A stretch of 64,000 bases of DNA from the NCBI GenBank assembly GCA_000004985.1, contig GG738909.1. One strand, given 5' to 3'. Made by a program: the position numbers and the translations under genes. The notes below the pieces were generated by a model. That model had not been told where the DNA came from and searched no databases. It saw nothing but the letters and a program-made list of their open reading frames with translations. The stretch is from Naegleria gruberi. Lineage: Eukaryota. Each line of letters starts with the position of its first letter. Position 1 is the first letter of the stretch. This document shows, piece by piece, positions 23,895 to 40,676 of this stretch.

Positions 23895-26336
23895 ATGCTG
23901 GGAGAACAAACACTCATCAAGAAGGGTCATAGGCAAAATCATCAAATGACTGCCGTTCGTAAGAATCCCCTTCGAATCAACAACCCAAAATCACCCTCAA
24001 TAAGAAGTCCTTTGGAAATGGGCTCAGTTGAATTGGGAGCAACATCAACTTTAAATAATTCTAGTGGTATTTCACCTACACACAAGAAACATGCACTAGT
24101 TGTTAGTGGAATAGAAGGAGGATCAAGTCGCCCTAATAGTTCCCTTCCAATACCTCCAACTACTAACAAAAACTCTGTAACATCCCTCAACAAATTTACC
24201 TCACTTACACCCCCAGTTAACAAAACTCATAGTTTATTCTCAGATGCTGATATTCAATCAAGAAACAATTCTAGACCATCATCTGCAACTTCTACAAAGG
24301 GAAGAAAAGTGATAAATGAGCTCGTTGGACTTCCAAACCTTGCTCAACAGGTATCTTCAATAGTTGAACCCAACATCATGTCTCCCACAAATGCTGACAG
24401 AGAATCTATAACAACAACAAGAAACTTGAGATCAAGTTTTGGTGCTAGCAGACCTCCATCTGCTAAATTAGGTATTTCTAACACTCACGTGGCTTCCACA
24501 TCAACAATTTCGCCCGCACACCATAACCAACCTTCAACTACAACATTCCAAACCTCTACTAATAATATTAATACTTCTCAGACAATCAATAATACTAATA
24601 ATAATAGCCACCTTAATGAGGAAAAGTTACCTCACGTAAGACCAACCTCAGTTAAGAAGAGTACCTTCACTGAATCAACAACGACAAATAATCACCACCC
24701 AACGACAAATCATGCTTCTTCTACAGCAGCTCTCCACGAAATACCTTCCCAAATCACCACCCAGCAAACAACTACGAGATCATCTAGTCTTAAATCCGAC
24801 TCATCCCCTGTTATTACTCCTTCCACACCAGAATCATCATCACTTTCCTACTTTAAAATTAAAAAAGTTCAAAGAGGCAAAGGTGTCAACGACAAAAAAC
24901 CACTAAAAGTTCCAATCGTACCAAAGACAAGAGAACTTAAACTTGAGAATGGTGGATTTTTGAACGATCTTCAAGCTACTACTCTAACTAATGAAAAGGA
25001 TGAAGAGGATGACTTACAAATTCTAACAAAGAACATTGCTCATCACCGTAATAGCAATCAGCACCTAATTGAGGAATCACCTGTTACTCCAATAACACCA
25101 AATTCACCTGAGCTTTCCTTTACCCCTGTAATTGAGAATAGGAAAAAACCACTCAAATTTACTGATAGAGACATTTCGAGAATTAATGACTATACAGAGT
25201 TAACACCACCTCCACAAAATAACAATAAGGATAGAATACCAACACCGGTGCTCAAGGTTCAAGAGGATGAGGATACACCCAAGGATATACCAGAAGAACA
25301 AGAGTCTCCAGAGGCAACTCGAGAGACAATGAGACAACTCAAGTTGTTAGAAATCTTCCCTAATGGACTTGATTCACAAAATAAGAAGATTAAGTATCAA
25401 CAACATAATGATATGGACATGTCATATAAGGAAGTTATTTCTGAATTGAAAGTTTTAACTAGTAGAGTTTCAATGCTGAGGAGGAATGAACAAGGAAGAA
25501 AAAACAGCTTTAAAAATGTTTACAATTTCCAAAATGATTCACTAGCAATGGATGATATCAATAATGTGGAAATTGAAAAGATGGAAAAGAGAATGAGAAG
25601 GTTGAATTATTACCGAAAGATTATGACTGCAGGTCTTGCTGGATGGAAGGAATATAAAACTGAAAGGGATTCATATGTTGCTTTGAGGAGAAGCAGCCTA
25701 GTTGAAGAACAAGGTTTTGATGAAATGAGCAAGGAGGATGAAGTTGTTGAAATCCGAAGATTCGACGATGAATACAGAAGATTTAAGCAGAGACTCAACC
25801 CAGAAATTTCTACCAAAGTGGCTAAGGCTATTGAACAAGTGGATCCACAGTCAGCTGCTATGAGTATTTTGGAAAATATGGTACTCAGTAAATCAGAAAA
25901 GATAAAGACTGAAGAAGATAAACAATTACAAAAGGAAAAGCTCACAGCAGAAATTATTCGATGGAAGAGCAGATGGTCACCCTTCGGAACACCTAGCATG
26001 TCAAGAACGACGTCTATTCTTTCATCTCTCGAAGGAAAAAGTGAGAGCATTGATATTGCAGATGCCGATGAGGTATTTGATGTGGAAGATGTCTCATATG
26101 AGGAAAAGGAGGAAGCTCAATCAGAAGATGATGAATCAGACGATGAGGGCGATTTTGAAATCATTATTTTGAATGACTTGCAAACTGAAGATGATGGATT
26201 CTTCCTCACTTCAACCATGAATGAAAATGAAGAAACTGAGGAAAAGATGTTAAATCAAGTAGATCCAAGAAAACTACTGAAAGCCATCGTTGCAGCCTCA
26301 AGAAAACCAGTTTCCAAAGCACAAAGCAAGGCCTAA
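23895..26336 (+). CDS. An 813-aa S/T/N/E-rich low-complexity protein. It is very likely the N-terminal part of the downstream kinase gene (see next feature).
   Basis: ATG at 23895. The ORF ends at 26336 but overlaps the open kinase frame, which starts at 26281 in a +1 frame, by 56 nt. No GT-AG intron that would rejoin them is visible. Confidence 0.55.
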   Translation: MLGEQTLIKKGHRQNHQMTAVRKNPLRINNPKSPSIRSPLEMGSVELGATSTLNNSSGISPTHKKHALVVSGIEGGSSRPNSSLPIPPTTNKNSVTSLNKFTSLTPPVNKTHSLFSDADIQSRNNSRPSSATSTKGRKVINELVGLPNLAQQVSSIVEPNIMSPTNADRESITTTRNLRSSFGASRPPSAKLGISNTHVASTSTISPAHHNQPSTTTFQTSTNNINTSQTINNTNNNSHLNEEKLPHVRPTSVKKSTFTESTTTNNHHPTTNHASSTAALHEIPSQITTQQTTTRSSSLKSDSSPVITPSTPESSSLSYFKIKKVQRGKGVNDKKPLKVPIVPKTRELKLENGGFLNDLQATTLTNEKDEEDDLQILTKNIAHHRNSNQHLIEESPVTPITPNSPELSFTPVIENRKKPLKFTDRDISRINDYTELTPPPQNNNKDRIPTPVLKVQEDEDTPKDIPEEQESPEATRETMRQLKLLEIFPNGLDSQNKKIKYQQHNDMDMSYKEVISELKVLTSRVSMLRRNEQGRKNSFKNVYNFQNDSLAMDDINNVEIEKMEKRMRRLNYYRKIMTAGLAGWKEYKTERDSYVALRRSSLVEEQGFDEMSKEDEVVEIRRFDDEYRRFKQRLNPEISTKVAKAIEQVDPQSAAMSILENMVLSKSEKIKTEEDKQLQKEKLTAEIIRWKSRWSPFGTPSMSRTTSILSSLEGKSESIDIADADEVFDVEDVSYEEKEEAQSEDDESDDEGDFEIIILNDLQTEDDGFFLTSTMNENEETEEKMLNQVDPRKLLKAIVAASRKPVSKAQSKA

Positions 26337-28128
26337 TCTACTTTCTCCCAATACAACCACCCCTCAACACACCAACACTACTACTGATACTACTGCTACT
26401 GCAACAACCACTAGTGGTACCAACACATCCAACCAAACAACCCTACCACCAATCCAATCTTCTCAGTCATCTCAAAACCTTCTTAATCCGAGTGAAGATG
26501 AATTTATTGTAAAGGTTAGTTTGCGAGAATCAAGAGCCATGTCTCAAAGAAATCTTTCCAGATACAATGGAAAAGAAGGAAAGGAAATGGACGATGCTCC
26601 TCAATCAAAACCAGCATTGGAATTACCAAGACTCGATTTTGATACTCCTAAACCACCAGCTTCCCCAACGGACATGATAAGAAGATCAAGGGAGATGGCT
26701 CTCAAAGAGGATATGGATCTTTTTCATCATGGCCAAAAGAATTACATGGATGATGACGACGACATGGCTATGATTAACTCTATTGAGGAACAAAATACAT
26801 TCATGACTGACAGTATTGACCAGAATGGAACTATTGATTGGAAGAAGGAAGCAGGTATGATGAAACAACGTCAAAGAAGAAATAGTGTCGATATGCCTGT
26901 AGTTGAAGAAGAAGAAGATATGGTCTTAATGAATGAAGATGAAGAAAAGAATCCTTCAGAGGAGGTTATTGCAGAGCAACTTACCTTTATGGAGGAAGAG
27001 ACACCAACCAATACAGACAAACAAAAGTTCCAATTCAACCAATTATTGCAACACCTTAATTCTGAAGTAGAATATAGTGACAAGACTAAAAAGAAGAAGA
27101 AAAAGAAGCACAAGAACAAGGACCACGATAGAATTCAATCACCAAGGGTAAGAGAAAACAGAGAAGAATCAGATGTCATTGAAGAGGATCCAAGTATGAC
27201 TATCACGACAGATCAACAACTATCACTCCAACCAAATGACGGCGCTAAGGTTATCATTGAATTGGATGAACTCTTAGGTATAGGAGCTCACGGTAAAGTT
27301 TACAAGGGATTCATTCCAAATTATATTACAAATACTAAGGATCCAGTTGCTATCAAAAAGTTGAGTGTCAAGGCAGGAAGATTCTCCAAAAAGTTCATCA
27401 AGTTAGAAGTGGACATTCTCAAACAATTATATCACCCATATCTTGTACAATATCTAGGTTGTAAATATAGCTCCAAACTTAAAGAGTACAGCATTGTGCT
27501 CGAGTATGTCGACGGAGGAACACTTGAACATTTTATCAAAACTTCTGGCCCAATGGATGAAAGGACGGTCAGTGTTGTTGTTTCTCAGGTACTTATGGGT
27601 CTTGAATACTTACACTCAAAGAGAATTATTCACAGAGACTTGAAACCAGCCAATATTTTGATTAGTGGTAAGGGTGTTGTAAAGATTACAGATTTTGGTG
27701 TCAGTGCCCAATTATTGAATATTGAAGCTATTAGAACTAGTTGTGTTGGTACACCTCACTATTCTGCTCCTGAAGTTATCATGGTCAAACCGTATAGTTT
27801 CACTGCAGATATCTGGTCTCTGGGCTGTGTTGTTTTCGAATTACTATTTGGAAAGAGACCATACGATGAATTCAATCAAGTTGCTGCCATGTATCACATG
27901 GTCAAAGACGACAAACCACCAATGCCAACTCCAAACAATTTGAGTCCAGTCTGTTTAGATTTTATTGATAAGTGTTGGACCAAGGATTGGAAGAAGAGAC
28001 CTACCGCAAGAGAATTGCAAACCCATCCCTTTGTAAACAACAATGAACATGTTATTCAAAAGTTTGTGAAGAACATGAGACAGTCCCTTATAATGCCTAA
28101 TAACCTCCTTTCTCAACAAACTAATTAA
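26290..28128 (+). CDS. STE-group (STE11/MAP3K-like) serine/threonine protein kinase. The catalytic domain lies in the C-terminal 300 aa and is preceded by T-rich and acidic low-complexity sequence.
   Basis: LGIGAHGKVYKG, AIKK, HRDLKPANILI, DFGVSAQL and GTPHYSAPEV. The frame is open from 26281 (the upstream stop is at 26278-26280), and the first in-frame ATG is at 26536. It probably forms one ~1400-aa gene with 23895-26336. Confidence 0.8.
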   Translation: MQPQENQFPKHKARPNLLSPNTTTPQHTNTTTDTTATATTTSGTNTSNQTTLPPIQSSQSSQNLLNPSEDEFIVKVSLRESRAMSQRNLSRYNGKEGKEMDDAPQSKPALELPRLDFDTPKPPASPTDMIRRSREMALKEDMDLFHHGQKNYMDDDDDMAMINSIEEQNTFMTDSIDQNGTIDWKKEAGMMKQRQRRNSVDMPVVEEEEDMVLMNEDEEKNPSEEVIAEQLTFMEEETPTNTDKQKFQFNQLLQHLNSEVEYSDKTKKKKKKKHKNKDHDRIQSPRVRENREESDVIEEDPSMTITTDQQLSLQPNDGAKVIIELDELLGIGAHGKVYKGFIPNYITNTKDPVAIKKLSVKAGRFSKKFIKLEVDILKQLYHPYLVQYLGCKYSSKLKEYSIVLEYVDGGTLEHFIKTSGPMDERTVSVVVSQVLMGLEYLHSKRIIHRDLKPANILISGKGVVKITDFGVSAQLLNIEAIRTSCVGTPHYSAPEVIMVKPYSFTADIWSLGCVVFELLFGKRPYDEFNQVAAMYHMVKDDKPPMPTPNNLSPVCLDFIDKCWTKDWKKRPTARELQTHPFVNNNEHVIQKFVKNMRQSLIMPNNLLSQQTN

Positions 28129-33603: not shown

Positions 33604-36600
33604 TTATTGAGAAGAGTGAATAATGAAAACAATTAAGATTATCAACCAAAATAAAGAAATTGCGAATGAAGAATTGGCAGACGAAACTCTATCACTATTC
33701 TTTGGTACGACAATACTTGAATTTTGAACCTTGACAGATTGTCCAGGAGTTGGTTTAGTTGAAGATGTCACTGGTTTCACAGTGGAAGTCATAGCAGAAG
33801 GTTGTGGTTTTGGTGATGGATACAAGGATGGTTGTGGCTTTGGTGATGGATACAGAGATGGTTGTGGTTTTGGTATAATTGAAGAACAATTGAGTCCTGT
33901 GAAACCATTCAAACAAGTGCACTGATCTGGTTTCGTACAGTTTCCATTACCTGAACAAACTGATGAGGAGTTGGTACTTGAAATTCCAAAGCAATTGAAC
34001 ATGTCGCACTCAACACCACTGTATCCACTCGTTGGACATGAAACTGGAGTTGGAGCTATGGCTTGATAGATTATTGAAGAGGTTGCAGTGGATTGAGTAA
34101 TTTCAATTCTTCTCTTATCTTGAATATCCTTTCTTTGTAAATAACTCAAATTGATTTGAGTTGTAATTAATCCGCCAATAGTTTGTAAAGTAATCTTATA
34201 AGATGAATCCTTTACAATTTCTTCAACTTGGGTTATATTGACATTTTCACCAGTTTTCAATGGAATTAACAATGTGACCATTAAGGCATCTTTCACATTT
34301 TCCACATAATGAACAAGTGAAGTGGCAGGTGTTGGGTCGACTCCTCTTTGAATATCAAATCCAAGAATAAATGGAGTAGTTTGAGCAATTGCATGATAAG
34401 CTAATGTTGAGGTAGAAAGTGGAATAATCATCAAATTTGGAACTCCTGTATCGTTGGTGACGAGAGAATTGAATTTTGAATCAAATTTGACATTGGTAGT
34501 TCTCAAATGCCAACGAGCTTGATAATGATGAGGATTTCCATCGGCAGACTTCAATGTATCAATAGCAACATACATATTAATACCCAAATTGTGAGTTGGC
34601 TTGACAAATAGGAATTCTCTTGTGTGATTGGCAGGAAAATAAGAAGTATTTCTATAAGCATCAATATAGACACCTCTGGCATAGTCAATCAATTGAGTTG
34701 TTTCAAAAACTGGAAGTGGTGTTTCCTTTTTTCCATATCCTGTCAAATCATTTGCAACTCTATTGACACGTTTCTGGGAGAAACCATCCACCATGACAGT
34801 ATTGTGAGATTCTGTTGATGTTGCAAAGGTTCTGTAAATAGATTGCTCATATTCACCACCACCATTATCAAACAATAATCTTCTTCTTCCATAAGGGTCA
34901 ATAATTACATTCAATTTGTCCTGATGTTCGTGTCCATAACCAAGTGGAGAAATATCCATCAAGGCATAGTTATCTGAGCTAGACCATCCGCTTCTCATGA
35001 CCATAAACCCACAATCTTTGAGGAGAGTGCTGTTGAATGATGGAGCTGGATTGACATTTCTGTTCATGAGCCATTTGATGAGAGCAGAATCTGGGAAATA
35101 TGAAGCATAGGTAGTGATATAATTGTAAACCTGATAATCCCATCCATCGTTCAAAGGACCTGGCATGTAGAGTGAAGGTGTCATGATTGAAATGTCAAAT
35201 TCCAATGCCTTTTGAAGTCTGTTCACATAATCTACAGGAAATTCATTCACAATACCAACAGTTTTGGCTGTCAAATATAATCCAATAATATTGTCAATTG
35301 AAACATGATGATAACCAGTTGATAATTCATATTGAGCACCATCTGAAAGGAATTGAGCAACTGACTCATTGTACATGGTTGAGATTGCGATAGATCTCCA
35401 AGTGGAAGATAATTTAAACTCGGGAAAAACAGCACCTGCCGTAAACAAACCATTACATTCCATAGTCAACCAATTTCCAGTAGTTCTGTAAGTATGCAAA
35501 TAGATTGCTTGTTCATAAATACTCTTGACAAGTGTATGTAAATCATCGCATGGTAAAACTGTCAAGAATCTATGATAAATTTCAGCCCATGAAGTTGACA
35601 AACGAATACCAGCTTCAATTGTTCTCCAAGCGCTATAACCAGCTTGATTGGCAAACGTTGGTCTTGGTTGACTAATCACCCATGAATTCAATTGAGCAGC
35701 AAACAAGTTAGTAATATTCTGAGCTAGCTCCATTTGAGAAGTTCCATTTGCATACCACAAGGCACGTCCCAAATCAGTCCAAAATGACATTCTATTCAAT
35801 TGCCATGTCCATTCAGCATCATATGGATCTGGAGATCCTGGTTGAGCTGTTGGATTGTAATTCCAATTGATATTCTCAGGATCTGCAAACGTGTATGGAA
35901 TGCTTACAACGGTGATTTTTCCAGACAAAGTTTCCTTTGCCTTTGTAATATATGAACTGGCAATTCCTGCTGAGGAAATCTTTCGAGGATTGAAACTCCA
36001 TGGTACGTTATTTCTTTCAAATTTCAAATAGGTACAAAAAGCACTCTTAGCTTTCGAATAATCCTTATCCTGAACTGCTTGTTTCACAGAAGAAAGTTGT
36101 GGAATACTAAAATTCAAAGCATTGAAAAATTCCACATCACCTACTACTGGTCCAACCACATCAAACATACTGAAATCTGACATTTTTACCTCAAGTGAAG
36201 TATTTGTCTTGGAAGTTCCCCAATTTGTGTAAAAAACCAACTGGTCAATCTTATCCCAACCAAGTGGTGTTCTTACAGTACTGAAATCTGATCTTTTCAA
36301 TGTGAATTTCTTCCATCCTGTGAAATCTAACACGACATTATACATGTAGTAATCAGCTCCTGTTTGTGCAGAGTCCTCACTTCCCATATATAGATAAATA
36401 GTGTTGCAGGAACATGGAGAGTTGACTTTGAGATAAAATTGAATGTAAGTGGCAGTGGAAAAATCCATAATTGAAGAAGAAAGGTTTAGATTATTTCTTG
36501 CTATTTGGAAAGTACCAGAAAGGGACATATTCCAAACTACAGAACTTGCCACACTATTAATTGACAAGTCATCAACATCCGGATAATCCAAACTGTCAAC

Positions 36601-36789
36601 CTTTACGAAATTTCCCTTCCAATCTTGCGTATTATTACAATTTGAAATAAATTTCTGATTCACAATTGTCGAATTGACCTTATGTGAAAATATTGTGAAA
36701 AGAAACACAACACCCACGACAAGCAATAGAAATTTCAACTTGTTGGTGTGAAAATTGTGAACAAAAATGGCGGTTTGTTGTTTTTTCAT
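33604..36789 (-). CDS. Cell-surface heparinase II/III-like (alginate-lyase-like) polysaccharide lyase-fold protein. It has an N-terminal signal or anchor, a ~750-aa lyase-like domain, an EGF-like Cys-rich module, a PKPQPSLYPS-repeat and S/T-rich stalk, and a C-terminal hydrophobic GPI or TM signal.
   Basis: Lyase-type motifs DGAQYELSTGYHHVS (ExSxxYH) and GHEHQDKLNVIIDPYG (HxHxD of the heparinase II/III C-terminal beta domain). The (alpha/alpha) toroid region is W-rich. EGF-like segment: CPTSGYSGVECDMFNCFGISSTNSSSVCSGNGNCTKPDQCTCLNGFTGLNC. C-terminus: SSFAISLFWLIILIVFIIHSSQ. Confidence 0.55.
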   Translation of the reverse strand: MKKQQTAIFVHNFHTNKLKFLLLVVGVVFLFTIFSHKVNSTIVNQKFISNCNNTQDWKGNFVKVDSLDYPDVDDLSINSVASSVVWNMSLSGTFQIARNNLNLSSSIMDFSTATYIQFYLKVNSPCSCNTIYLYMGSEDSAQTGADYYMYNVVLDFTGWKKFTLKRSDFSTVRTPLGWDKIDQLVFYTNWGTSKTNTSLEVKMSDFSMFDVVGPVVGDVEFFNALNFSIPQLSSVKQAVQDKDYSKAKSAFCTYLKFERNNVPWSFNPRKISSAGIASSYITKAKETLSGKITVVSIPYTFADPENINWNYNPTAQPGSPDPYDAEWTWQLNRMSFWTDLGRALWYANGTSQMELAQNITNLFAAQLNSWVISQPRPTFANQAGYSAWRTIEAGIRLSTSWAEIYHRFLTVLPCDDLHTLVKSIYEQAIYLHTYRTTGNWLTMECNGLFTAGAVFPEFKLSSTWRSIAISTMYNESVAQFLSDGAQYELSTGYHHVSIDNIIGLYLTAKTVGIVNEFPVDYVNRLQKALEFDISIMTPSLYMPGPLNDGWDYQVYNYITTYASYFPDSALIKWLMNRNVNPAPSFNSTLLKDCGFMVMRSGWSSSDNYALMDISPLGYGHEHQDKLNVIIDPYGRRRLLFDNGGGEYEQSIYRTFATSTESHNTVMVDGFSQKRVNRVANDLTGYGKKETPLPVFETTQLIDYARGVYIDAYRNTSYFPANHTREFLFVKPTHNLGINMYVAIDTLKSADGNPHHYQARWHLRTTNVKFDSKFNSLVTNDTGVPNLMIIPLSTSTLAYHAIAQTTPFILGFDIQRGVDPTPATSLVHYVENVKDALMVTLLIPLKTGENVNITQVEEIVKDSSYKITLQTIGGLITTQINLSYLQRKDIQDKRRIEITQSTATSSIIYQAIAPTPVSCPTSGYSGVECDMFNCFGISSTNSSSVCSGNGNCTKPDQCTCLNGFTGLNCSSIIPKPQPSLYPSPKPQPSLYPSPKPQPSAMTSTVKPVTSSTKPTPGQSVKVQNSSIVVPKNSDRVSSANSSFAISLFWLIILIVFIIHSSQ
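33800..33877. repeat. Tandem 30-bp coding repeat (2.6 copies) that encodes the PKPQPSLYPS stalk repeats of the lyase-like gene.
   Basis: ggttgtggttttggtgatggatacaaggat, then ggttgtggctttggtgatggatacagagat, then a partial copy. Confidence 0.7.
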
Positions 36790-36931: not shown

Positions 36932-37639
36932 TTAATTCAATCTTCCATAATTAGGTTGTCTCGAATTTCTTCTCGTAATGCAAACGATACAACAAATGCA
37001 ACAACACAAAATCAATAAACAGAACAAAACAACACCAATAATCAAACCAGCAGTCACTCCACCAGAGATTGTACCTGGTGATTTGTAAACAATTGCAATA
37101 TTGTAGACATTTCCATTTGAAGCTTGACAAGTTGGTGTGAAATTGTCAACTGAGGAACACAACAAAAAATCAGAAGTGAAAGCTAGTTGACCTCCCTTAA
37201 TATTAAAACAGATTGGAATGCTGTCGCCGTCATATGACAAAATTGCATTGTAAAGATTACTGAGAGGTCTTGGAATTATGGTGCTAATTGTCATTTTAAA
37301 ACTGCCAATGACATGTGAAATTGTAATGCCATTACTAGTTGACACCATTTGAGTGAATGGAAGAATAGTTTGATCACATTGATCGTTAAATAATGTCATA
37401 TCACCTAATAACCAAGAACCAGATTCGATATCTGAAGTGGCAAGAGCAGAACGTTGTTGTTTAGTTTCGGAAAGTTTCTTCATGTATTCGGAAAGGTCAG
37501 ATTCAGGATAATGTTGATGAGAATGATCAATCATTTGTTTGATGGATTGGGCTAATGGCAAAGATGAAATTTGTTGAGTGGAGAGATGAGTCAACACACC
37601 AACAATGATGACAAGAATTAATAAAACGACTGTTGACAT
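36932..37639 (-). CDS. Small type-I membrane protein (235 aa) with a signal peptide, an ~150-aa ectodomain, a TM helix and a Cys-rich juxtamembrane tail (CCCICCIVC) that could be palmitoylated.
   Basis: MSTVVLLILVIIVGVLTHLSTQQ signal. C-terminal GLIIGVVLFCLLILCCCICCIVCITRRNSRQPNYGRLN. ATG start. Confidence 0.5.
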   Translation of the reverse strand: MSTVVLLILVIIVGVLTHLSTQQISSLPLAQSIKQMIDHSHQHYPESDLSEYMKKLSETKQQRSALATSDIESGSWLLGDMTLFNDQCDQTILPFTQMVSTSNGITISHVIGSFKMTISTIIPRPLSNLYNAILSYDGDSIPICFNIKGGQLAFTSDFLLCSSVDNFTPTCQASNGNVYNIAIVYKSPGTISGGVTAGLIIGVVLFCLLILCCCICCIVCITRRNSRQPNYGRLN

Positions 37640-37750: not shown

Positions 37751-40676
37751 TTAGATTTTAGTTGCAGCACCCTTATTCTTCAATTTCAAAACACAACAAG
37801 TTGTGATAATGATTGCAGAAACGACACCAATGACCAAGACAGAACCAACAATGGAAACTACAATGGCAATGATGGCTTCATTGCTCAATCCAGCTGATGA
37901 TCTTGGTTTGTTTTCCTTGATTAAATTGAGGTCGATAACTGAGAAGGATGTCAAGTGACTAGTTTTACATGTCATGGTAAAGACAAGTGTGTTTGAGTCA
38001 ACGTTTGATTTGACTAAAACTGTTTCAACACCATCATTCTTCCATTCGTTGAATTCAGTATTGAAATACATGCAAGTGTAATTAAATGGTTCCTTGCTGT
38101 CATAATTTGAGACAAGTACATCTTTAAAGTAAATGTCAATTGGTGTTGATAGTTCTTTAACTTTGAATGGAGAACCATCTGATTGAAGAATGGAAACAGT
38201 AACAATTGGACTGCTGATTGCTTTCTCAACTTGGGATGGATTCTCCTTTTCTTTATCTACTTCGTAGACAGAACTTACTAGGGTTAAATCGGTAGTTGGG
38301 GTATTTTGATTGGAATTGTTGAGTTGAGTATTAAAATTTGGAGGGAAGGTTACGGTAATAGTATCTGTCTTTTCAAAGACAACAACCTTGGCATCTAATT
38401 GTTCCAAATTTTTAACTGGTTCAGTTTTGAGTTCTCCACCAGAGGTAAGATTGTAATTGAATGATTCAATAAAGAATGGATCCAACTTTCTAACTCTTCT
38501 ATTTTCATAATCAGCAATAAATATCTGACCAGTGGTTGGTGAGATTGAGATTGTAGTTGGAGTGTTGATTGAGGCAAAGGTAGAAATTTGTCCATCTCCA
38601 TTCAAAGATGCAACTCCAGTACCAGCAATTGTTACAAGTTTACCATCAGAATTGATTTTTCTAATTCTATGATTATTAGTATCAACAATGAAGATTTCAC
38701 TACTGATTGGAGAAACTTCAACATCTATTGGCAAGTTCAATTGAGAGTTAGTGGCCAAAATGTTTTCCCCGGAATATCCTGCAACGCCAGTACCACAAAT
38801 AGTTTGAATGATACCATCAATGTTGATCTTTCTAATTCTATGGTTACTGGTGTCTGCAATGACAACCTCACCGTTTGGTAAAACAGAGACACCAGAAACG
38901 TTGAACAATTGAGCTTGAGTAGCCAATTGACCATCTCCTGAATAACCAGCAACGCCAGTTCCAGCAATAACAGTAGAAGAACCATCTTGTGAAATACGAA
39001 TGACTCTGTGAGTTTTTGGATCAGCAACATAAATCATTCCATTAAAGATAGCAATACCATGTGGTCTATCTGATGTTTTGGAACCAGTTACTGTAGAGAT
39101 GAGATTGTCCTTGATCTTTCTAATTCTGTTCATGTCAGAAATGAATAATTCACCTGATGAGAATTCGAGAGCTTTAGGATTGTTGAGGTAAGTACTCAGA
39201 GCAAGAACATTATCTTGATTGACTACATTTTCATAGGAACCACCAGCAAATGGTGTAATAATACCATCACTACCAATTCTTCTAACTGTATCTTCAGCAA
39301 TATCACTGATAAAAACTTCACCACTTGGTGAAACAGCAACACCTCTTGGTTGGAACAATTGACTCTCAGTGGCCAACTTGTTATTACCCAAATATTTAGG
39401 TTGTCCATTACCAGCAACACGTCTAATAAATCCACCAACGTCAACCTTGGAAACTGTGTAAAGATCAGCAAAGTAGACCTCACCATCAAAAGATGAAACA
39501 CCACCAGCAATAACAGGAGAATCAACACCTTGAACGCCAGCAGTACTTCCTCCCATAACACCATTACCAGCAATAGTATTAATGAAACCATTAGTACCAA
39601 CAACTCTGATTCTATTATTATTGGTGTCAGCAATGTAAAGTGTAGTAGTTTCAGCAAATTCAATATCAGTTGCTGAGATACCAGCCAAGATTGCCAAACC
39701 ACCATCTCCACTGAATTTGTCAGTGCTACCACCAACAACCAATTCAACAGTACCATTTTGATTAATCTTTTTAACACCAATACTGTCAACAAAGTAAAGT
39801 TCCTTTGTTTCAGGATTGATTGAAAGACCCATTGGAGATTCAACACCTACTGTTGTTGTTTCATTGTTGACTGGTACGCGATAGAGGGAACCAGCAATAA
39901 TAGAAACTAATCCAGTTTCGAATGAGTATGATTTGATCATGTGAGCAGCAGTGTCAGTAATGTACAATTGTTTTTCATCGTGAGAAAGTTTGACAGCTTT
40001 TGGAAAGTTAATTTTGGCTTCACTGGCAGGAACAGGAGAAACTTCATTCAAGTCAAAACCAAATTTACCACAACCAGCAATTGTTATAATAGTGCCGTTA
40101 GCAAAGATTTTTCTAATTCTGTGATTTTCAGTATCCTAGGTTGAAAATAGATGAAATTAAGAGATCTCACAATTAGAAAAAACTTACAGCAAAGTAAATA
40201 TCGTTAGTGGAAGAGAGTTCAACTTTTCCAGGATTGTTAATGTTAGCTTGAGTTGCCAATTGACCATCTCCAGAATATCCAATGATACCATTACCAGCAA
40301 TAGTGGTTGCTTTTCCTGTATTGATATCAATTTTTCTAATTCTGCTATTAATTCTGTCTGTTATTATTTTAATCAGTTATAGAGAATTCACATGAATTGT
40401 AAAACATGCAAAGGAATTTAAATATTCTAAATATTGAAAGATAAACTCACCTGAAACATAAACGTTTCCAGTTTTACGATCAACTTTAACTTTGGTTGGT
40501 GAGATTGAAACTTGTCCTGCATTCACATTATCATCAAATCCACCTCCTGCAATTGTACTAATCCTATAGAGAGGATCCAATTTTTGTTGTTGTGCATACA
40601 CTATTGATGAAGTTAACAGGGCAATTAGCAACAAGCTAATAATCAGCCACGAGGAATGAGATTGAGAGGCCATCAT
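37751..40676 (-). CDS. NHL-repeat beta-propeller cell-surface protein of ~927 aa. It has a signal peptide, multiple NHL repeats, an S/T-rich region and an Ig-like region, a TM helix and a short tail. Three exons, 40676-40451, 40357-40188 and 40135-37751, with introns at 40358-40450 (93 nt, GTGAGT...AACAG) and 40136-40187 (52 nt, GTAAGT...CCTAG).
   Basis: Exon 1 is MMASQSHSSWLIISLLLIALLTSSIVYAQQ...GNVYVS. Exon 2 is DRINSRIRKIDINTGKATTIAGNG...NDIYFA. Exon 3 is DTENHRIRKIFANGTIITIAG.... The YVxDxxNxRIRKI NHL signature recurs at least 10 times. C-terminal TM: AIIAIVVSIVGSVLVIGVVSAIIITTCCVL. Confidence 0.7.

Follow-up and report, generated by a model that had tools for sequence, protein, structure and literature searches.

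The closest described relatives of the gene discussed here are the heparinase III enzymes (HepC) of polysaccharide lyase family PL12, represented by crystal structures from Pedobacter heparinus (4MMH/4MMI) and Bacteroides thetaiotaomicron (BT4657; 4FNV/5JMD), in which an α/α-toroid is joined to an antiparallel β-sandwich. In a published table (PMC12088678), catalysis by the Pedobacter enzyme is assigned to Tyr294 and His424, with Asn240 neutralizing the carboxylate; residue roles given below follow that source. Here, we describe a gene from the heterolobosean amoeba Naegleria gruberi (GenBank assembly GCA_000004985.1, contig GG738909.1), located on the minus strand at positions 33604-36789 of a 64,000-nucleotide stretch of DNA (the window), whose product is predicted to have the same toroid and β-sandwich as HepC and to retain the equivalents of all three residues. 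Taking identity, architecture, and ancestry together, we consider it likely that this is an N. gruberi nuclear gene of bacterial origin for a membrane-tethered, outward-facing PL12-like lyase. The features of the gene and of its 1061-amino acid (aa) product are as follows.

33604-36789, minus strand: complete single-exon coding sequence of 1061 codons, terminated by a stop codon at 33604-33606.
36670-36789, minus strand: predicted signal peptide (or signal anchor) at the N-terminus, aa 1-40 (hydropathy; AlphaFold2 helix at aa 16-34).
36157-36666, minus strand: N-terminal CBM11-like β-sandwich of ~170 aa, aa 42-211 (Pfam, alignment, AlphaFold2, Foldseek).
35071-36129, minus strand: Hepar_II_III_N α/α-toroid, aa 221-573, holding N439 and Y493 (Pfam, PDB search, AlphaFold2, Foldseek).
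35473-35475, minus strand: Asn439, equivalent to heparinase III Asn240 (alignment and invariance).
35299-35343, minus strand: motif DGAQYELSTGYHHVS, aa 483-497, in which Tyr493 corresponds to heparinase III Tyr294 (general base/acid) and His494 to His295.
34057-35034, minus strand: C-terminal antiparallel β-sandwich, aa 586-911, including Hepar_II_III_C at aa 586-770 (AlphaFold2, Foldseek).
34897-34935, minus strand: motif GHEHQDKLNVIID, aa 619-631, in which His620 corresponds to heparinase III His424.
33877-34041, minus strand: Cys-rich EGF-like unit with 8 Cys, aa 917-971 (PROSITE EGF_2 pattern, phmmer).
33685-33876, minus strand: Pro/Ser/Thr/Lys-rich stalk, aa 972-1035, predicted to be disordered (AlphaFold2 pLDDT <50).
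33607-33684, minus strand: C-terminal signal, aa 1036-1061, consisting of SSANSS, then hydrophobic FAISLFWLIILIVFII, then HSSQ (AlphaFold2 helix at aa 1041-1060).

Several independent comparisons place the protein in the heparinase II/III superfamily. Both Pfam domains of the superfamily scored above their gathering cut-offs and in N-to-C order: Hepar_II_III_N (PF16889) with an E-value of 1e-99 (334.5 bits against a cut-off of 22, all 340 profile positions covered) and Hepar_II_III_C (PF07940) with an E-value of 7.8e-19 (68.6 bits against a cut-off of 24). In a sequence search of the PDB, heparinase III chains were the sole matches at E <1, the best being 4mmi/4mmh (E 5e-29 over aa 222-791), with 5jmd and 4fnv also found. 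The AlphaFold2 model (mean pLDDT 83.1, pTM 0.81, core mostly >90) contains a helical domain at aa 218-575 and a β domain at aa 588-911, and the structures that Foldseek matched best to it, 4mmh, 5jmf, and 4fnv, are again PL12 heparinase III (E 1e-27 to 1e-29, target TM 0.61-0.79). These led the ranking by ~9 orders of magnitude in E-value and were followed by lyases of families PL17, PL39, PL15, PL21, PL35, PL33, and PL8; all of the best 42 Foldseek PDB matches combine a toroid with a β-sandwich, 41 of them being lyases and the other the epimerase DS-epi1. The results point firmly to a PL12-like lyase of the heparinase II/III superfamily, with lyase scaffold and catalytic triad intact, and make PL12 heparinase III the closest characterized relative by sequence and predicted structure, ahead of PL15, PL17, PL21, PL35, and PL39. 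An initial annotation of the locus, made from the sequence alone, had proposed a heparinase II/III-like lyase domain with an α-toroid plus β-sandwich fold, and had stated beforehand that the lack of a lyase match and of this fold would speak against it; the Pfam and PDB matches bear out the domain, and AlphaFold2 and Foldseek show the fold. Its wider phrase, PL12/15/17/21-like, stands for the superfamily and can be narrowed, since the nearest family is specifically PL12-like, yet the protein is not a HepC orthologue. Orthology to HepC was considered and rejected: the NCBIfam equivalog model NF045573 scored 152.5 bits where its cut-off is 700, NF045572 scored 95.2 bits where its cut-off is 600, and identity to the heparinase III crystal structures is ~20-22%.

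The catalytic residues of heparinase III can be followed into the N. gruberi protein residue by residue, Asn240, Tyr294, and His424 aligning to N439, Y493, and H620 with the chain numbering shifted by the same 24 positions throughout. None of the three varies in any of the family alignments, which comprise 118, 79, and 86 sequences. The two motifs singled out in the initial annotation are indeed those that hold the equivalents of Tyr294 and His424: in DGAQYELSTGYHHVS, Y493, E488, and G484 are invariant across the family alignments, and in GHEHQDKLNVIID, H620 is invariant and H622 and D624 are at least 90% conserved. A further indication comes from a bacterial homologue, P0015 (39% identical), which is a 1280-aa fusion of the lyase with GH88 and F5/8 type C domains. 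GH88 is an unsaturated uronyl hydrolase that processes the products of lyases, and because it acts on such unsaturated products, its presence in P0015 supports lyase chemistry in the clade.

The coding sequence is one unbroken open reading frame (ORF) with an ATG start and an in-frame stop six codons 5′ of Met1. The encoded protein matches, at 100% identity, an N. gruberi database entry called "predicted protein" (P0001, 913 aa), which begins at Met149 of the 1061-aa ORF and is 148 residues short, omitting the signal peptide and half of the N-terminal β-sandwich (codons 1-148, 36345-36789). The start of P0001 falls midway in a conserved N-terminal domain. Because this N-terminus is complete in both orthologues from Willaertia magna and in many bacterial homologues, we take the 1061-aa reading to be the correct one and the P0001 start to be wrong, as judged by sequence comparison. 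The signal peptide, the CBM11-like domain at aa 42-211, and the N-terminal truncation of the public model all go beyond the initial annotation.

At the N-terminus, the predicted signal peptide has a basic n-region, a hydrophobic core at F20-F34, and a VNS-T site fitting the -3/-1 rule, and the Willaertia orthologues have canonical signal peptides. The domain that follows resembles CBM11, a family of carbohydrate-binding modules (CBMs). The Pfam model CBM_11 (PF03425) matched it below cut-off (E 1.3e-3, 19.3 bits against 27); PF03425 matches are precomputed for several bacterial homologues. Foldseek aligned the domain, modeled by AlphaFold2 with strands across aa 42-211, to CBM11 of C. thermocellum (6r31; target TM 0.61, probability 1.00). 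The region is alignable in 32 of 86 homologues, including 29 bacterial ones at 16-28% identity, and motifs common to the aligned domains include DYY, DFTGW, and R-PLGWD-I. On this evidence the CBM11-like domain appears to be of bacterial type and homologous to the N-terminal domain of many bacterial relatives, so that the order of N-terminal domain and lyase in the heterolobosean proteins is the bacterial architecture.

The Cys-rich unit contains the PROSITE EGF_2-type pattern CTCLNGFTGLNC at aa 957-968 and the six-Cys spacing of EGF domains (C933-x11-C945-x5-C951-x5-C957-x-C959-x8-C968). All Pfam EGF models scored below cut-off on it (EGF_TEN 21.5 against 65, EGF_Teneurin 18.8 against 24.3, EGF_2 16.2 against 22.1), and AlphaFold2 was not confident over the unit, where its alignment contained no homologues. 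An exhaustive phmmer search with the unit (~50-55 aa) retrieved 890 proteins at E up to 1e-3, in which it occurs in tandem arrays of up to 62 copies at ~45% identity. Some of the proteins carrying the repeat exceed 6,000 aa, and many top matches are giant proteins from metagenome contigs. Among 10 matches that were traced, 7 are metagenome proteins and 3 are heterolobosean, namely a protein of ~2,600-2,700 aa from Naegleria fowleri (KAF0975443 in the cluster) and two from Acrasis kona, one of which is labeled "tenascin-X." The unit is thus best described, from these sequence matches, as a tenascin-type repeat of heterolobosean proteins. Because it is absent from the lyase homologues of Willaertia, amoebozoans, and bacteria, it was gained in the Naegleria lineage. 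In the stalk that follows, a 30-bp tandem repeat at 33796-33874 (2.6 copies, 87% matches) encodes PKPQPSLYPS.

By hydropathy, the 1061-aa protein has two hydrophobic segments only, at aa 13-40 and aa 1035-1061, and it carries 20 N-glycosylation sequons. The predicted topology therefore comprises a signal peptide, no internal transmembrane segment, and a hydrophobic tail after SSANSS, the arrangement expected when an ectodomain is secreted and stays anchored through its C-terminus. The tail looks like a glycosylphosphatidylinositol (GPI)-attachment signal; alternatively, it would span the membrane as a tail anchor and leave 4 residues in the cytoplasm. A hydrophobic C-terminal tail after small residues is found both in N. 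gruberi and in the Willaertia orthologue P0002. In the second Willaertia paralogue (P0003; L011 8001-10944, JBEGDK010000119.1), an annotated 3′-terminal intron swaps the hydrophobic tail for "NSFN," and the read-through ORF at this locus is 969 aa long and ends ...NYWKYVSFYLIIIHLFILFIC, a hydrophobic, GPI-signal-like tail. Because reading through restores the tail, the intron is probably a misannotation; it is the sole annotated intron of P0003, at the extreme 3′ end, and we discarded it as a sign of "eukaryotization." The pair of signal peptide and C-terminal hydrophobic tail thereby occurs in all three heterolobosean copies and is lacking in the bacterial and amoebozoan relatives examined, and the conservation of such a tail in each of the three genes speaks for a functional membrane tether. 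The EGF-like module, the Pro/Ser/Thr stalk with its 30-bp repeat, and the hydrophobic anchor segment were each noted in the initial annotation and have all held up, the first through its homology to heterolobosean repeats and the last through its conservation in Willaertia. The distribution of these parts indicates a stepwise gain, in which signal peptide and anchor tail would have been acquired before the Naegleria/Willaertia split and the EGF repeat and stalk later in N. gruberi.

A working model can be assembled from these parts. The protein would enter the endoplasmic reticulum and the secretory pathway, be N-glycosylated, and stay attached to the outer leaflet through either a GPI anchor or a transmembrane segment in its tail, a flexible stalk carrying the catalytic head; display on the plasma membrane would also bring it to the phagosome interior. 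Asn439 would neutralize a uronate carboxylate, and Tyr493 and His620 would remove the proton from C5 and donate one to the departing O4, cleaving an acidic, uronic-acid-containing polysaccharide by β-elimination, with the CBM-like domain aiding polymer binding. We tentatively propose that the target is the capsule, exopolysaccharide, or biofilm matrix of bacterial prey, broken down at the cell surface and in phagosomes; a role at the "feeding surface," as the initial annotation put it, is something that we continue to infer. In the 8 bacterial gene neighborhoods sampled, P0015 (L009 3815-7657) adjoins a gene for a polysaccharide deacetylase and the full set of Wzx/Wzy/Wzz genes for exopolysaccharide synthesis, and two homologues adjoin sulfatases, one of them also GH39 and GH27 genes; the exopolysaccharide cluster and the sulfatase loci lend thin support to a role in digesting prey polysaccharide. 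Two loci have GH2 genes or a polysaccharide deacetylase nearby, and the others gave no information. Reading a specific substrate from these neighborhoods was attempted and abandoned, there being no consistent signal across the 8 loci, and nothing favors heparan sulfate as the specific substrate.

The main rival, which we regard as unlikely, is that the lyase remodels the amoeba's own glycocalyx, cyst wall, or adhesion matrix during encystment, excystment, or the amoeba-flagellate switch. A lyase permanently tethered by a stalk to the amoeba's own membrane would suit such a task, as would an EGF-like repeat shared with giant tenascin-like surface proteins of Heterolobosea and the presence of two neighboring genes for surface-type proteins; the exopolysaccharide synthesis cluster beside P0015 can be enlisted here too, being the classic arrangement of a "self-polymer" lyase. 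Set against these points, the homologue from the amoebozoan Clastostelium lacks an anchor although it has a signal peptide, the nearest relatives among bacteria belong to soil phyla known for degrading polysaccharides, and the literature retrieved reports no Naegleria uronic-acid polymer, although no search was aimed at one. Digestion of prey polysaccharide remains our preferred, tentative role. A more elaborate version of it can be imagined, in which a PL12-like lineage from myxobacteria-like bacteria was exchanged between Heterolobosea and Amoebozoa, or caught twice from the same donors, and became in Heterolobosea a "capsule-stripping" ectoenzyme, tethered by GPI, that allows bacteria in capsules or biofilms to be eaten. 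We offer this as speculation and think it doubtful; if true, the clade would define a new specificity, for bacterial acidic exopolysaccharide rather than glycosaminoglycan or alginate.

Two further alternatives concern the chemistry itself. A non-cleaving enzyme on a lyase scaffold, for example a polysaccharide uronate C5-epimerase like DS-epi1, seems quite improbable. The human enzyme (6hzn) has the same fold by Foldseek (E 6e-15), and abstraction of the C5 proton is common to epimerases and lyases; however, the sequence similarity of the N. gruberi protein is to lyases (heparinase III at E 5e-29, Hepar_II_III_N at E 1e-99), identity to DS-epi1 is 13% with no Pfam DSE-like_N match, and the family member P0015 is fused to GH88, which needs the unsaturated products of a lyase. 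Very improbable, in our judgment, is a lyase-derived lectin, that is, a noncatalytic receptor or adhesin binding bacterial acidic polysaccharide for prey capture. The succession of binding head, EGF unit, stalk, and anchor is receptor-like, but N. gruberi and both Willaertia copies have kept every residue that is invariant in the family, the Asn/Tyr/His triad among them, and this retention argues that catalysis has been maintained.

The relatives of the gene are overwhelmingly bacterial. Bacterial homologues run into the hundreds, with identities of 30-42%, and belong to Abditibacteriota, Armatimonadota, Opitutaceae, Verrucomicrobia, Acidobacteria, Planctomycetes, Latescibacteria, Poribacteria, Chitinivibrionales, and Myxococcales, among others. 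The eukaryotic homologues found come from four genera: N. gruberi itself, the two Willaertia genes, and the amoebozoans Clastostelium recurvatum (EukProt EP01113) and Physarum polycephalum (partial, 545 aa), the last two known as transcripts. P0126, from a metagenome, shares 60% identity with the Clastostelium sequence. Trees were built by neighbor joining (NJ) with bootstrap, and are distance-based, unrooted, and without outgroup. Heterolobosea and Amoebozoa each formed a clade with 100% support, and the two grouped together with 75% (Kimura distance) or 86% (Scoredist). When Amoebozoa were left out, Heterolobosea joined the bacterial group P0011/P0131/P0134/P0135/P0202 with 84%, and when Heterolobosea were left out, Amoebozoa joined the same group with 72%; P0135 comes from a metagenome-assembled genome of Myxococcales and P0202 from one of Deltaproteobacteria. 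The clade of eukaryotic sequences sits inside bacterial diversity. Because the relatives elsewhere are all bacterial and the NJ trees show this nesting, a bacterial origin of the gene by ancient transfer appears well supported. Horizontal acquisition had been suggested in the initial annotation from the bacterial distribution of the domain and from the single-exon structure; the first of these arguments stands and is joined by the trees, in which the phylogenetic check proposed there finds the eukaryotic sequences within bacterial diversity, and the second falls away, a single exon being no evidence in an intron-poor genome.

Vertical descent from an early eukaryote with many losses would also bring heterolobosean and amoebozoan sequences together, as the NJ trees do with 75-86% bootstrap. 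We give this very little credence: matches from four named eukaryotic genera stand against hundreds of bacterial clusters, the eukaryotic clade lies inside bacterial diversity, the architecture of bacterial-type N-terminal domain and lyase is shared with bacteria, and no N. fowleri or A. kona lyase is among the homologue matches listed, although proteins of both species were in the searched database. This last absence suggests loss, perhaps in the pathogenic Naegleria lineage.

Whatever its source, the gene is at home in its present genome. Its flanking genes encode a protein kinase, Arm repeats, a BRAP2 protein with zf-UBP and RING domains, an NHL/teneurin-like membrane protein, and a Myb protein. 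Its composition and codon usage match those of its neighbors and the host, with a GC content of 0.363, a GC content at third codon positions (GC3) of 0.282, and a relative synonymous codon usage correlated with the pooled neighbors at r = 0.956, the highest r of the 12 genes compared. The Willaertia magna orthologues (ABK040_008953 and ABK040_012599; 47% and 42% identical) are found on contigs of 1.29 Mb and 0.2 Mb, where the surrounding genes include those for RhoGAP, RCC1, Kelch, and EF-hand proteins, and no synteny with N. gruberi was seen around the lyase gene. In the NJ trees, the Willaertia copies group with each other, with N. gruberi as the sister of this pair (bootstrap 100 and 100). 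Presence in both genera implies that the gene predates the Naegleria/Willaertia split and was later duplicated in Willaertia. It is old and fully ameliorated, not a recent arrival. An assembly contaminant or very recent bacterial insertion, for which only the overwhelmingly bacterial nature of the domain family could speak, is effectively refuted by the eukaryotic genes on both flanks, the host-like GC, GC3, and codon usage, the in-frame fusion to a heterolobosean EGF repeat and eukaryotic targeting signals, and the Willaertia orthologues on their own long contigs.

Several points weigh against the interpretation of the locus as a tethered, bacterially derived lyase with a part in digesting prey polysaccharide. 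Identity to any characterized enzyme is ~20-22% and the HepC cut-offs are missed widely, so that homology gives no substrate. The fold and triad are also found in a eukaryotic C5-epimerase, DS-epi1 (6hzn). The GPI assignment follows from sequence rules of thumb, with which a tail transmembrane anchor or shedding would be equally compatible. The eukaryotic and "myxobacterial" branches are long and their supports moderate, and the trees do not settle the donor lineage or the choice between one transfer and two. Finally, the bacterial neighborhoods are heterogeneous, about half of the sampled loci being uninformative.

Other features of the window deserve brief mention. Just upstream of the lyase gene and on the same strand, 36932-37639 (minus strand) codes for a protein of 235 aa that has a signal peptide and a C-terminal transmembrane segment and matches nothing in Pfam, and 37751-40051 (minus strand) encodes the NHL/teneurin-like repeat protein, which has a C-terminal transmembrane segment; the lyase gene and these two upstream neighbors form a run of three surface-protein genes on one strand. 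At the left end of the window, hexamer arrays occupy positions 1-471, (AACCCA)x78.7, and 1164-1604, (CCCAAA)x73.8, which read (TTTGGG)n on the other strand and are accompanied by a strong GC skew of -0.6. Their appearance is that of telomeric and interstitial telomere-like repeats, and if they are telomeric, the lyase gene would lie ~32 kb from a chromosome end. Two long ORFs on the plus strand, 23895-26336 and 26290-28128, have 47 bases in common; the second encodes a protein kinase domain, no Pfam match was obtained for the first, and the pair is probably one gene split by a short intron or a frame change.

The case is clear and, in one sense, unsurprising: a bacterium-eating protist keeps a carbohydrate-degrading enzyme of bacterial origin. 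Its value lies partly in its being an example of domestication in a protist, in which a bacterial CBM-plus-lyase unit has been kept and eukaryotic targeting and anchoring parts added step by step. The substrate of the N. gruberi lyase would annotate hundreds of genes in soil and freshwater bacteria, and the enzyme could show how amoebae handle capsules and biofilm matrix. With no N. fowleri counterpart detected among the matches listed, the gene may also mark a difference between free-living and pathogenic species.

Compared with the systems described so far, the N. gruberi protein stands nearest to PL12 HepC, with which it shares the scaffold, the triad as N439/Y493/H620, and His295 as H494, and from which it differs in its low identity and in the addition of an N-terminal CBM11-like domain and of eukaryotic secretion and anchor modules. 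Its own family, as far as sequence can tell, is a PL12-like clade of bacterial "heparinase II/III family/alginate lyase family" proteins (e.g., P0008, P0135, P0004, and P0005), which are 33-42% identical over the whole lyase and among which no characterized member was found. Many of these relatives combine the N-terminal β-sandwich with the lyase in ~840-930 aa, as N. gruberi does, whereas those sampled have no EGF unit, Pro/Ser/Thr stalk, or C-terminal hydrophobic tail, P0011 ending in a short hydrophobic-basic tail of its own. The Willaertia orthologues have the signal peptide, N-terminal domain, lyase, and hydrophobic tail of N. gruberi without the EGF unit and repeat stalk. Clastostelium and Physarum are 37-39% identical to N. 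gruberi in the lyase part, and the Clastostelium protein, with a signal peptide and without N-terminal domain or anchor, is apparently a secreted form. Membrane association of this scaffold outside bacteria has parallels in the baculovirus ODV-E66 chondroitin lyase (PL23; 3vsm, E 6e-6) and human DS-epi1 (6hzn, E 6e-15), both recovered by the fold search; these are only 10-13% identical, however, and belong to other families with other chemistry or substrates. Both are anchored N-terminally, not by a C-terminal tail. Among eukaryotes, PL12-class genes have been counted in the secretomes of the saprolegnian oomycetes Saprolegnia parasitica and Achlya hypogyna (PMC4316629), which, by class count alone, sets a precedent for the scattered occurrence of PL12-type genes in eukaryotes that live by phagotrophy or osmotrophy; no anchoring architecture is reported for them. 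The full-text literature searched and the supplements of the Naegleria pangenome paper contain no description of the N. gruberi lyase gene and no link between Naegleria and such an enzyme. PL12-like genes in other eukaryotes and the transfer of carbohydrate-active enzymes into phagotrophic protists are thus already known; what appears to be new is a Naegleria gene of this kind with a domesticated architecture.

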